From an uncultured Gammaproteobacteria bacterium (GTDB lineage: Bacteria; Patescibacteriota; Patescibacteriia; Patescibacteriales; UBA12465): a stretch of DNA of 56,578 nt. Positions within the stretch are counted from its first letter, which is position 1. Every line of letters begins with the position of its first letter. The DNA lies in contig CAZMYU010000005.1 in NCBI GenBank assembly GCA_964570655.1, positions 1-56,578 of the forward strand. The letters are read 5' to 3'. The position numbers and the translations under genes were made by a program. The notes under the pieces are model-generated. The model saw only the letters and a list, made by a program, of their open reading frames with translations, had not been told where the DNA came from and made no database searches. Shown here piece by piece: positions 2,156 to 53,928 of the stretch.

Positions 2156-2204
2156 AAAAGCCGTTTCATGCAGACCTTTTAACCAAGGTAGAAACGGCTT
2201 TTTT
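2156..2204 (+). terminator. hairpin terminator
   Basis: AAAAGCCGTTTC...GAAACGGCTTTT followed by T-rich run after stop at 2145. Confidence 0.65.
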
Positions 2205-2218
2205 CTTTTTTAAAGAAC

Positions 2219-2298
2219 CTGGATCCTGGCCTTCGCCAGGATGACAGGTGCGGGGGTTGTTTGTTTTAATTGTCATCCTGGCGAAGGCCAGGATCCAG
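2219..2298. repeat. inverted pair of 28-nt REP hairpins (GIY-YIG-associated family)
   Basis: 2219-2246 is the exact reverse complement of 2271-2298 (TGTCATCCTGGCGAAGGCCAGGATCCAG); identical to copies at 46498 and 46859. Confidence 0.95.
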
Positions 2299-2318: not shown

Positions 2319-2347
2319 TTGACAATTTCATAGCCTCGTGCTATGAT
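2319..2347 (+). promoter_or_regulatory. sigma70 promoter with extended -10
   Basis: TTGACA-17bp-TATGAT with TG at the extended position. Confidence 0.75.
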
Positions 2348-2392: not shown

Positions 2393-3073
2393 ATGACAGA
2401 AAAAAAAGAAAAACCTTTCCATGAATCCATACTGGATTCAATCGTTATGGCTCGTCAGCTTGACCTGCCTCAATTGGCAAAAATCATCAAGGATACCGTC
2501 ATACCAGAAAACCATGATGTAATTATTAAGGCTTGGCAAGAAAAGATTATCGGCTTTGGCCTTGGCGATGATTACGGAATCCCGGAGAGTTTGAGAACCA
2601 AAAACACTATTCAGGTTCTCAAAAAAATGCAAAAAGAAAGAGATCAGGTCCTGAAGTTCGACCTTTGGAAGGACTATGCCGATTTTTTATTAAATCTGGA
2701 AAATCTTTTCCTGGCCGAATTGCAAAGCAAGTTGGACAATCAGGAAATTGAACATTGGCTGGAGTCAATGAATAATTTCGTTGATGAAAATCGGAACACT
2801 GGCGCCTGGGATGTCCCCGAACTGGAGGATATCTGTTTCCAATTGCCTGGTCGCAAAGAGAGCGTTCAAATCAGTATTCCTTATGCGGATGTCAAAAGTA
2901 TTGGTTTGAATTTTATGATTCAGGATGAATCTCATTGGTATTCGCTCCAAAAGCATACCGACCTGCCGACAATTTTCTCACCAGAGCTGATTGAAATAAT
3001 CGTCAAATGGTTACAAGCCGGCGAAGTTGATCTGAGCGAAGAAGCTCAATTCCGGTTTGTTGAAAACGATTAA
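2393..3073 (+). CDS. hypothetical protein (226 aa)
   Basis: Long ORF between a promoter and a terminator; no motif recognised. Confidence 0.75.
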   Translation: MTEKKEKPFHESILDSIVMARQLDLPQLAKIIKDTVIPENHDVIIKAWQEKIIGFGLGDDYGIPESLRTKNTIQVLKKMQKERDQVLKFDLWKDYADFLLNLENLFLAELQSKLDNQEIEHWLESMNNFVDENRNTGAWDVPELEDICFQLPGRKESVQISIPYADVKSIGLNFMIQDESHWYSLQKHTDLPTIFSPELIEIIVKWLQAGEVDLSEEAQFRFVEND

Positions 3074-25565: not shown

Positions 25566-25611
25566 AATCCTGGTGCCTGGCACCAGAATTCTGGTGCCTG
25601 GCACCAGGAAT
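25566..25611. repeat. tandem REP doublet, left flank of RAYT
   Basis: Two copies of CTGGTGCCTGGCACCAG (25570-25586, 25591-25607). Confidence 0.9.
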
Positions 25612-25792
25612 TAAAAAACATCAAAAAAACCAATGTTTTAGAGTCTTTAATCTAATGTTTTGATAAATTATTTCGGGCTTGATTATTTTAAAATTTGTAT
25701 TAAAATATAGATAAATTAATTAAAATTAATATTCAATTTCAAACAAGCCCCTCATTTGTTGGGGCTTTTTGTTTTGGATAAAATTTAAACGT

Positions 25793-26449
25793 ATGGGACG
25801 GCCACTTAGAATTCAATACCCCGGAGCCCTGTATCATGTCTTTACTAGGGGCAATAATAAAAAAATAATATTTATGAATGATGGCGATTATGGATTATTT
25901 TTGTCTATTTTAAAAAAGGTTGTAAATGATTACGGATGGGTAATATACGCTTACTGTTTAATGCCCAATCATTATCATCTGCTAATTGAAACACCAAAGG
26001 CTAATTTGGCTAAGGGGATGTTTGAGTTAAATTATAAATACGCTAATAAATTCAATTATTTTTATAAAAAAGTGGGGCATTTGTTTGCTGGAAGATATAA
26101 AGCTATTTTAGTTGAAAAAGAATCCTATTTGTTCAGATTGATAAAGTATATTGCTCAAAATCCAGTTAGAAAAAGACTGGTTAAGAGTCCATCGACTTGG
26201 CGGTGGAGCAGTTGTTTCGAAATAATTAAAAACAAAAGAATAACCGGATGCATAGATAGAGAAAAAATAATGTTATTATTTGGCAACATGTTAGAATATA
26301 AACGATTTATTTCAACTGGAAAAATTAGCGAAAATTTTGTTAGACTCGGTATTCAAAATAAGTATATTCTCGGATCTCAGAGTTTTATAGCTAGTATTAG
26401 GAATCTTGGTGCCAGGCACCAGAATCCTGGTGCCTGGCACCAGGAATAG
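25793..26449 (+). mobile_element. REP-associated tyrosine transposase (RAYT, Y1 HUH family)
   Basis: YHVFTRGNN, AYCLMPNHYHLL (HUH), FAGRYKA, KYIAQNPVR (catalytic Tyr), WRWSS; flanked by REPs; ATG 25793. Confidence 0.9.
26402..26447. repeat. tandem REP doublet, right flank of RAYT (inside the 3' end of the ORF)
   Basis: 43/46 identical direct repeat of 25566-25611; encodes LGARHQNPGAWHQE. Confidence 0.9.
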
Positions 26450-41396: not shown

Positions 41397-41425
41397 CTGG
41401 ATCCCCAGTCGAGCTGGGGATGACA
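41397..41425 (-). repeat. REP variant (29 nt)
   Basis: Reverse complement reads TGTCATCCCCAGCTCGACTGGGGATCCAG; ends identical to the 28-nt family. Confidence 0.85.
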
Positions 41426-46483: not shown

Positions 46484-46849
46484 CTAACCCCCTTCTTTGT
46501 CATCCTGGCGAAGGCCAGGATCCAGGTTCAAATTAAATTTCTGACCAAAAGCTAATTCAAATAAGGGTAGGTATAAATCATCCCAGTTAGGGTTGACTTC
46601 TTCTATTAATCTTATCTTCCATTCACGCCTCCAATACTTTAAATCCTTCTCTCTTTTAATAGCTAGACCGATATCACCATAAATTTCATAATAGACTAAT
46701 TTATCAATATTATATTTACTGGTAAAACAATCTGATCTGATTTTCTGTTTATGCTGATAGACTCTATTGATAAGACTGTTAGTTACTCCGATATACAGCG
46801 TGCCGTTTCTTTTACTAGCCAATATGTAGGTATAATATTTCCCCTCCAT
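46484..46849 (-). CDS. stand-alone GIY-YIG nuclease (YhbQ/UPF0213-like)
   Basis: YYTYILASKRNGTLYIGVTNSLINRVYQHK, LVYYE, AIKREKDLK, NPNWDDL. Confidence 0.92.
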   Translation of the reverse strand: MEGKYYTYILASKRNGTLYIGVTNSLINRVYQHKQKIRSDCFTSKYNIDKLVYYEIYGDIGLAIKREKDLKYWRREWKIRLIEEVNPNWDDLYLPLFELAFGQKFNLNLDPGLRQDDKEGG

Positions 46850-46886
46850 ATAATTAACCTGGATCCTGGCCTTCGCCAGGATGACA
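46498..46886. mobile_element. GIY-YIG gene bounded by perfect 31-bp inverted REP repeats
   Basis: 46498-46528 TGTCATCCTGGCGAAGGCCAGGATCCAGGTT is the exact reverse complement of 46856-46886. Confidence 0.7.
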
Positions 46887-46976
46887 GTTTAGAGGGGTAA
46901 TATTAATAAAGATGCTGAAGGGCTGGACACGCAGTGGAGGGGGAATATTAACGGTGAATAAACGATGTTGGCATCC

Positions 46977-53899: not shown

Positions 53900-53928
53900 T
53901 GTCATCCCCAACTCGATTGGGGATCCAG
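53900..53928 (+). repeat. REP variant (29 nt)
   Basis: TGTCATCCCCAACTCGATTGGGGATCCAG between greA and lysS. Confidence 0.85.

Follow-up and report, generated by a model that had tools for sequence, protein, structure and literature searches.

What is the short inverted pair of hairpins at positions 2219–2298 of the 56,578-nt stretch of DNA analyzed here (the window), and does it belong with the small GIY-YIG nuclease gene that lies 44 kb away? The window is contig C5 of an 869-kb, 21-contig Patescibacteria-type genome (38.7% G+C, ~96% complete); the other contigs are numbered in the same way. The pair consists of two 28-nt arms, CTGGATCCTGGCCTTCGCCAGGATGACA (2219–2246) and TGTCATCCTGGCGAAGGCCAGGATCCAG (2271–2298), which in a repeat search of the window proved 100% complementary, with 24 nt between them. 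On the minus strand, the left arm reads TGTC-ATCCTGGC-GAAG-GCCAGGAT-CCAG, which divides into a tag, an 8-bp stem closed by a 4-nt loop, and a tail. The right arm is the same tagged repeat on the plus strand, with a tail that runs on as CCAG-ACCC. The TGTC(A) tags of both arms point inward, toward an asymmetric spacer of 24 nt (2247–2270, GGTGCGGGGGTTGTTTGTTTTAAT). We propose, with a probability of roughly 80%, that this element is a head-to-head (HH) homodimer of a TGTC-tagged repetitive extragenic palindrome (REP) of the CGTC-1 type, or, in current terms, two Ssn-related motifs (SRMs), and that its arms are two recognition sites of the nuclease encoded at 46484–46849.

The 20-nt palindromic core of the arms occurs four times in the window (at 2223, 2275, 46502, and 46863) and was absent from 100 shuffled versions. 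The two copies outside the pair bracket the nuclease gene, a 121-codon open reading frame (ORF) at 46484–46849 on the minus strand whose sole Pfam domain is PF01541 (E = 4.9e-14). One of these REPs (46498–46525, plus strand) overlaps the 3′ end of the ORF, and the other (46859–46886, minus strand) lies 10 nt upstream of the start codon. Their tags face outward. The nuclease core spans ~105 aa; from ~L109 onward, the final ~14–17 residues are read from the REP and the bases immediately past it. AAC precedes the left arm of the pair and both nuclease-flanking copies (GAAC-CTGG / CCAG-GTTC); the right arm has no such extension and reads CCAG-ACC instead. All of this agrees with an initial annotation of the window, which had described identical 28-nt hairpins in inverted orientation, the same repeat with opposite tag orientation at the GIY-YIG gene, and the AAC shared by the left arm. 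The opposite orientation of the tags rules out the idea that the pair is a nuclease cassette from which the gene has been deleted. Outside the upstream REP of the nuclease, at 46887–46951, a spacer-like sequence (GTTTAGAGGGGTAATATTAAT) comes first, then what resembles a degenerate REP (AAAGATGCTGAAGGGCTGGACACGCAG), and then another stretch similar to the spacer; head-to-head pairs may at one time have formed the flanks of the cassette.

The architecture of the arms corresponds to a published repeat class. Di Nocera, De Gregorio, and Rocco (2013; PMC3733652) defined CGTC-tagged REPs, in which members of the CGTC-1 group are tagged with CGTC or TGTC and have a stem of 8 bp that begins with AT, a loop of 4 nt, and CCA as the tail. 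CGTC-1 REPs form mainly head-to-head homodimers with conserved spacers of 20–100 bp, have occasional in-frame copies in housekeeping genes, and include Neisseria dRS3 and Rickettsia RPE-6 (PMC3733652). That survey covered five phyla, none of them candidate phyla, and stated that a dedicated enzyme was then not known (PMC3733652). The repeat analyzed here has the same build, with A-T at positions one and two of its 8-bp stem, and forms 15 HH homodimers versus a single HH heterodimer. It differs from the published class in the coexistence of two families, each with its own nuclease gene, and in an unusually high copy identity.

A nuclease partner has been published as well. Chenal et al. (Nat Commun, 2025; PMC11893778) reported that SsnA of N. 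meningitidis, a GIY-YIG protein of 94 aa, and homologs from three other species bind CGTCATTCCCGCGMAVGCGGGAATCYRG only as single-stranded DNA (ssDNA). Cleavage occurs upstream of the tag at a distance of a few nucleotides, and recognition needs the sequence as well as the shape (PMC11893778); on our reading of the oligonucleotide lengths given there, the distance is about 3 nt. The motif lies near 71% of homolog genes and on both sides of 42%, a repeat-gene-repeat layout that the authors liken to an insertion sequence while drawing a comparison with systems of REPs and REP-associated tyrosine transposases (RAYTs) (PMC11893778). The family (cd10448) consists of single-domain GIY-YIG proteins of ~94 aa, with Y6, Y17, and E64 as catalytic residues in the N. 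meningitidis enzyme.

Several observations connect the window to this family. The 28-mer is as long as the NTS consensus CGTCATTCCCGCGMAVGCGGGAATCYRG and has a loop (GAAG) and a tail (CCAG) that fit it, and it fully matches the SRM search pattern HGTCWYN(0-2)YYVSBRHN(0-5)WNVSBRGN(0-2)RNCYNB (PMC11893778). This pattern has 56 matches in the genome, whereas 20 genomes simulated with a Markov-1 model averaged 1.15. Copies flank ORF 46484–46849 on both sides, as in the published "NTS-ssnA-NTS" arrangement with its single-domain gene of ~95–105 aa, and the protein conserves Y8, Y19, and E67 within its core. In 37 homologs, Y8, Y19, R29, E67, and N86 are invariant, with a Y8-Y19 spacing of 11 residues. 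Further likenesses are a 28-nt element with a (C/T)GTC tag, an 8-bp AT-first stem, a GMAV loop, and a CYRG tail; copies that number in the tens to hundreds and are almost all intergenic; and a separate motif variant for each enzyme. Unlike the published systems, the host here has a 0.87-Mb Patescibacteria genome, neither the candidate phyla radiation (CPR) nor Patescibacteria appearing in the text of the paper (PMC11893778). The stem sequence (ATCCTGGC) is also different. Inverted pairs, their conserved spacers, and in-frame intragenic copies are found here and are not treated in PMC11893778. The repeat class and its nuclease partner are therefore established in the literature (PMC3733652, PMC11893778), and this genome is a further member.

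Comparison across genomes supports the assignment of the gene to this family. Homologs with flanking tagged hairpins, 50–66% identical, occur in both Patescibacteria and Proteobacteria. At 30 loci from the phylum, an outward TGTC- or CGTC-tagged hairpin was present at 20 and on both sides at 12; the stems vary, and ATTCCCGC is the commonest. Proteobacterial homologs at 50–55% identity show this cassette too. Searches of NCBIfam and of PDB sequences gave no match to the nuclease. Of 301 genomes sampled from the phylum, 86 have homologs at E ≤ 1e-15, compared with only 2 of the 60 from the organism's own family, so that the distribution of the Ssn-type gene appears patchy and suggests acquisition.

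The genome encodes nine small stand-alone GIY-YIG proteins in addition to UvrC, and only two of the nine genes are close to each other: that in the window and a paralog on C8 (59% identical). The C8 paralog is bracketed, tags outward, by a different repeat (family 2), TGTC-ATCCCCAR-CTYGA-YTGGGGAT-CCAG, which has 15 genomic copies and does not match the SRM search pattern. Two enzyme-repeat pairs are present in this one small genome, the window gene with the repeat of the 2219–2298 pair (family 1) and the C8 paralog with family 2. Family 2 also has two copies in the window: TGTC-ATCCCCAG-CTCGA-CTGGGGAT-CCAG at 41397–41425 (minus strand), 9 nt upstream of a uvrA-like start codon, and an intergenic copy at 53900–53928 (plus strand). 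The seven remaining small GIY-YIG genes are of other subtypes and encode 78–94 aa (C7 7569, C9 4253, C1 101106, C1 116582, C4 63789, C4 90663, and C15 8304); most adjoin tRNA genes or tRNA-like fragments with GC-rich hairpins.

An inverted REP pair with a short spacer and no target duplication also resembles a REP doublet forming hairpins (REPIN), and we considered whether the pair is a classical REPIN that owes its movement to a tyrosine transposase of the RAYT type (HUH/Y1) and is linked to the GIY-YIG gene only incidentally. In REPIN/RAYT systems, or REPtrons (Nunvar 2010; Bertels and Rainey 2011; Ton-Hoang 2012; as presented in PMC11893778 and PMC3733652), the inverted pair and spacer are likewise copied together, the same repeat stands on both sides of a single-copy gene, target duplication is absent, and the substrates are ssDNA hairpins. 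Three Y1_Tnp (PF01797) proteins are encoded in the genome, one of them by a RAYT-like gene within the window (~25760–26440, plus strand, 226 aa, E = 1.7e-13). However, each Y1 gene is flanked by a distinct palindrome of its own, with no family-1 or family-2 repeat nearby. The window gene has CTGGTGCCTGGCACCAG (at 25570, 25591, and 26427), and CTGGAGCCAGGCTCCAG and GGGGTCTGACCCC belong to the other two, which lie at ~102.7 kb on C3 and ~86.6 kb on C1. We therefore reject the Y1 genes as RAYT partners of the family-1 repeat, whereas each of the two Ssn-type genes has family 1 or family 2 at its flanks. The gene between the repeats encodes a hydrolytic GIY-YIG protein rather than an HUH/Y1 transposase, and the tag is TGTC, whereas RAYT-linked REPs have GTAG (PMC3733652). 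In REPIN terms, we find inverted REPs copied together with their spacer and no cognate RAYT flanked by the same REP, and we regard movement by such a transposase as very improbable. The genome carries three REPtron-like systems in addition to its two Ssn systems. The CTGGTGCCTGGCACCAG pattern gave 22 strand-hits in the genome, which correspond to fewer loci, palindromic copies being counted on both strands. Recognition of subterminal ssDNA hairpins with cleavage a short distance away is a likeness to IS200/IS605 elements; a Y1 transposase, asymmetry between left and right ends, and known strand-transfer chemistry are features of those elements that this system lacks.

Throughout the genome, the family-1 core has 54 copies, 27 per strand, versus none for a control pattern, and this number is a lower bound because several copies are at contig ends. 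The full 28-mer is perfect in 51 of the 54, with one mismatch in two copies, two mismatches in one, and no copies with three or four; this amounts to four arm mismatches in 1512 nt (0.26% divergence). Nearly all copies are intergenic despite a genome that is ~90% coding. Fifteen tags-inward homodimers were found, all with a 24-nt spacer except one of 23 nt, and they are scattered singly rather than in cassette arrays, a point that bears on an integron attC-like reading; the 28-mer is accordingly not confined to the two loci in the window. The single HH heterodimer combines a family-1 repeat with a second repeat type, and one head-to-tail (HT) pair is present. The tags-outward (tail-to-tail, TT) arrangement is restricted to the two nuclease genes and one gene-less mixed pair. 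The latter, at C15 12805–12890, consists of one family-1 and one family-2 REP 29 nt apart, and may represent a cassette that has collapsed or two single copies side by side.

Terminal inverted repeats of 28–32 nt around a short core, dispersed between genes, would also describe a miniature inverted-repeat transposable element (MITE) moved by a DDE-type transposase. A MITE with target duplication is ruled out by the borders of the 15 pairs, none of which has direct repeats; the flanks tend instead to extend the inverted symmetry (GAAC...GTTC). Single arms, moreover, insert alone as well, and no transposase gene with these ends was found, although no search aimed at DDE transposases was made. 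This origin seems to us scarcely credible.

The spacers bear on how the pair has been copied. After orientation, the 15 spacers have a mean pairwise identity of 69%, versus 33% expected from composition or random sequence, and they share the motif G.TGC...G..T...T..TTTAAT (consensus among pairs, GRTGC..G.TTG.TTATTTTAAT). Spacer-like sequence with up to 4 mismatches occurs in the genome only beside the repeat (10 of 10 cases), which rules out a spacer motif that exists independently in the genome. Given this homology and the confinement of the spacers to the repeat, the ~80-nt pair has propagated as a unit, as REPINs do. In its structure, the pair is the nuclease-free, REPIN-like unit that the initial annotation had proposed.

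The annotation had also held that this unit spread recently, given zero mismatches between its arms, and here the data point the other way. Whereas the arms are 0.26% diverged, the spacers of the same units are ~31% diverged on average, with identity as low as 46%; zero mismatches can therefore not be read as recent spread. Six pilin-linked pairs in paralogous contexts provide an internal clock: identity among them is 98–100% in the arms, 89% in the leader and first codons next to the pair, and 79% in the spacer. In addition, the absence of copies with three or four mismatches implies that decay is prevented or that decayed copies are removed. We conclude that the identity of the arms is held by selection, loss of defective copies, or homogenization rather than being a sign of youth. 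These same observations count against a very recent neutral burst in which every copy would be young. The predominance of perfect copies, the absence of the core from all 40 relatives searched, and the near-identity of some spacers (2 of 24 nt differ between the window and C6 20324, and 1 of 24 between C16 and C18) would be expected of such a burst. But it would leave unexplained why arms are more conserved than the spacer and coding sequence beside them, and we judge it improbable.

The pilin-linked pairs lie ~15 nt upstream of paralogous type IV prepilin genes, at C4 80033, C6 367, C9 18819, C16 14721, C18 11406, and C20 5251. A seventh, disrupted pair precedes a further paralog at C1 ~130.9 kb, where a GC-rich sequence like GCCCCACTTCGCCAAGGCTTCGCGGGGC breaks into the REP loop. 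The genome has ~30 pilin-like genes, and the prepilin paralogs share a leader, MNS(H/R)ERKL..., followed by FTLIELLVVIAIIGILA. The spacer is in one orientation in three of the six intact pairs and in the opposite orientation in the other three; a single event in the ancestor of one subgroup, either an inversion or a re-insertion, would explain the split. A pilin paralog in the window (start ~50909) has the same leader and no pair; as a within-genome empty site it was rejected, since its upstream sequence is unrelated and the comparison is not clean. This placement is comparable to the clustering of NTS around surface-protein genes reported in Neisseria. The GC-rich palindrome GCCCCACTTCGCCAAGGCTTCGCGGGGC itself is found in frame in the leader peptides of some pilin paralogs, where it adds APLRQGFAGQ, as well as at further sites (C4 80153, C18 11526, C1 131008, and seven more).

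Single arms have also entered coding sequences. In-frame copies interrupt three universal genes, leuS (C6 21969–21996), tsaD (C1 54927–54954), and rsmA/ksgA (C6 36373–36400), adding the peptide SSWRRPGSRS or LDPGLRQDD. Each insert is missing from nine of nine aligned orthologs of related genera, and no consistent target duplication was seen at the insert borders. These copies are lineage-specific insertions of the single 28–30-nt element.

The setting of the 2219–2298 pair bears on whether its role is at the level of DNA or RNA. Upstream, a gene for a Cache/HAMP sensor (712–2145, by Pfam domains) ends in a probable intrinsic terminator at 2156–2211 (plus strand), whose 12-bp stem leads into a U-run (−17.8 kcal/mol as folded RNA, z = −3.4). 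Downstream, a sigma-70-like promoter, TTGACA-17-TATGAT, at 2319–2347 (plus strand; 11 of 12 consensus positions, with a TG) serves an orphan gene at 2393–3073. The pair lies between the two, as the initial annotation stated. REPs of other bacteria act at the RNA level (background in PMC3733652), and the pair could in principle be a terminator, an mRNA stabilizer, or a hairpin controlling processing or translation, kept by selection on RNA structure independently of any nuclease. The 28-bp stem is very stable, and many pairs lie inside operons, 6–25 nt from neighboring genes, or, in six or seven cases, just upstream of pilin start codons; given these locations, transcription must run through them. 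In contrast, the pair at 2219–2298 follows a separate terminator and precedes the next promoter, so it is probably little transcribed, and there is no U-run 3′ of it. If structure were all that selection acted on, compensatory changes would be tolerated, whereas 51 of the 54 copies have one and the same sequence, and Rfam offered no family match to the repeat, only generic hairpin (microRNA) models far below threshold. As the sole explanation, an RNA-level element is unlikely. Such a role is compatible with nuclease recognition and does not exclude it, being possible at the operon-internal pairs and unlikely at 2219–2298, where the position between terminator and promoter leads us to argue for a role at the DNA level.

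A sequence of events consistent with nuclease recognition can be outlined. In single-stranded DNA, as it arises in replication, repair, recombination, or uptake, each arm would form its own 8-bp hairpin, presenting an unpaired TGTC tag and a CCAG tail. The nuclease would bind this hairpin sequence-specifically and nick a few nucleotides (~3) 5′ of the tag. Both nicks would then fall inside the 24-nt spacer on opposite strands, the top one near 2267/2268 and the bottom one near 2249/2250, if the cut positions of the published enzymes (PMC11893778) apply here. The ~80-nt pair has spread in REPIN-like fashion to at least 15 intergenic sites in the lineage, with single copies of 28–30 nt inserting too. 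Sequence-specific recognition would be the reason why the arms do not drift, whether through selection or homogenization. Binding and cleavage by this protein, the positions of the cuts, and the involvement of the nuclease in spreading are what we infer.

A number of points weigh against this interpretation. The activity of the protein at 46484–46849 is predicted from its sequence and by analogy, and homology to N. meningitidis SsnA at E < 1e-10 was judged by proxy only: the better seven of ten matches are 46–55% identical (E = 1e-21 to 1e-31) and come from four non-CPR genomes. These are a Sphingomonas genome and three metagenome-assembled genomes (MAGs; alphaproteobacterial, Chromatiaceae, and unclassified), all of which carry the identical 28-mer, and one of the four has the Neisseria-type ATTCCCGC motif. 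The family-1 repeat also lies 5 nt after the stop codon of a GIY-YIG gene of a different subtype on C15. Folding predicts that a homodimer on one strand prefers a 28-bp fold-back to two small hairpins: the 80-nt unit as ssDNA forms a single 28-bp hairpin (−36.1 kcal/mol, z = −9.4), while single arms alone form their own 8-bp hairpins at about −9 and −13 kcal/mol. In this folded-back state, the motif may be concealed from an enzyme that is inactive on duplex DNA. An empty site for the locus at 2219–2298 was sought and not found. GIY-YIG enzymes are hydrolytic, and to our knowledge they have no strand-transfer activity; because they cut but do not join DNA, copying would fall to host repair or replication. 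Finally, the function established in Neisseria is the restriction of transforming ssDNA by SsnA and its repeat, not transposition (PMC11893778).

A bolder version holds that the head-to-head pair, and not the single hairpin, is the self-copying form, and that a hydrolytic GIY-YIG nuclease drives a REPIN-like system. Here, both strands would be nicked in the spacer, and the repair or copy synthesis thus initiated would re-template the arms from other copies, so that the arms stay identical as the spacers drift and at times invert. By folding back over 28 bp, the homodimer would shield resident copies from self-cleavage. We consider this version doubtful and put it forward tentatively. If it were true, it would represent a second, mechanistically independent route to REPIN-type repeats, active in genome-reduced Patescibacteria.

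This genome is a very clean natural instance of such a system: within only 0.87 Mb, two paralogous nuclease genes each lie between copies of a separate repeat variant, and the repeats constitute ready substrates and predictions for Ssn specificity. Its further contributions, modest but useful, are the inverted pair plus spacer as a copied unit, the arms held identical while spacers drift, and the three in-frame insertions in essential genes. These bear on a question left by the Ssn paper, namely whether such a nuclease contributes to the spread of its own repeat. Patescibacteria rely on pili and on taking up DNA. Given this dependence and the pairs upstream of six to seven pilin paralogs, a link to ssDNA uptake or recombination is worth testing.

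Outside this genome, the repeat was found in few places. The collections yielded no near relative of the genome, viral contigs held no copy of the 28-mer, and metagenome scans with the left flank, and with the pair pattern at a 22–26-nt gap, returned nothing for either. The exact 28-mer was present in one or two copies in five unrelated genomes: Sphingomonas, gamma- and alphaproteobacterial MAGs, a Chromatiaceae MAG, and an unclassified MAG. The 8-kb stretches around the 28-mer in these five (loci L001–L005) contain no nuclease gene, and each of the four genomes that were searched has SRM-flanked homologs elsewhere.

The neighborhood of the pair shows some further features. The product of the gene upstream has no database record. 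For the orphan gene downstream, a search of 5.8 billion proteins returned no homolog but itself, and 60 genomes of the family gave weak partial matches only; the sole other contig that encodes it ends at the repeat. The promoter and leader at 2299–2385 (TTGACAATTTCATAGCCTCGTGCTATGATTTTTTATTACTTT...) recur, ~97% identical, at C2 119600–119855, where they adjoin another REP pair and front an unrelated gene. The linker and spacer are diverged between the two sites; pair and promoter are possibly a duplicated module. Arrays of the octamer TTGAAAGA, with 74 matches of the double unit, often lie directly beside REP copies, for example at C2 63763, C6 ~320 and ~6210, C9 ~18920, and C20 ~5200, among other sites.

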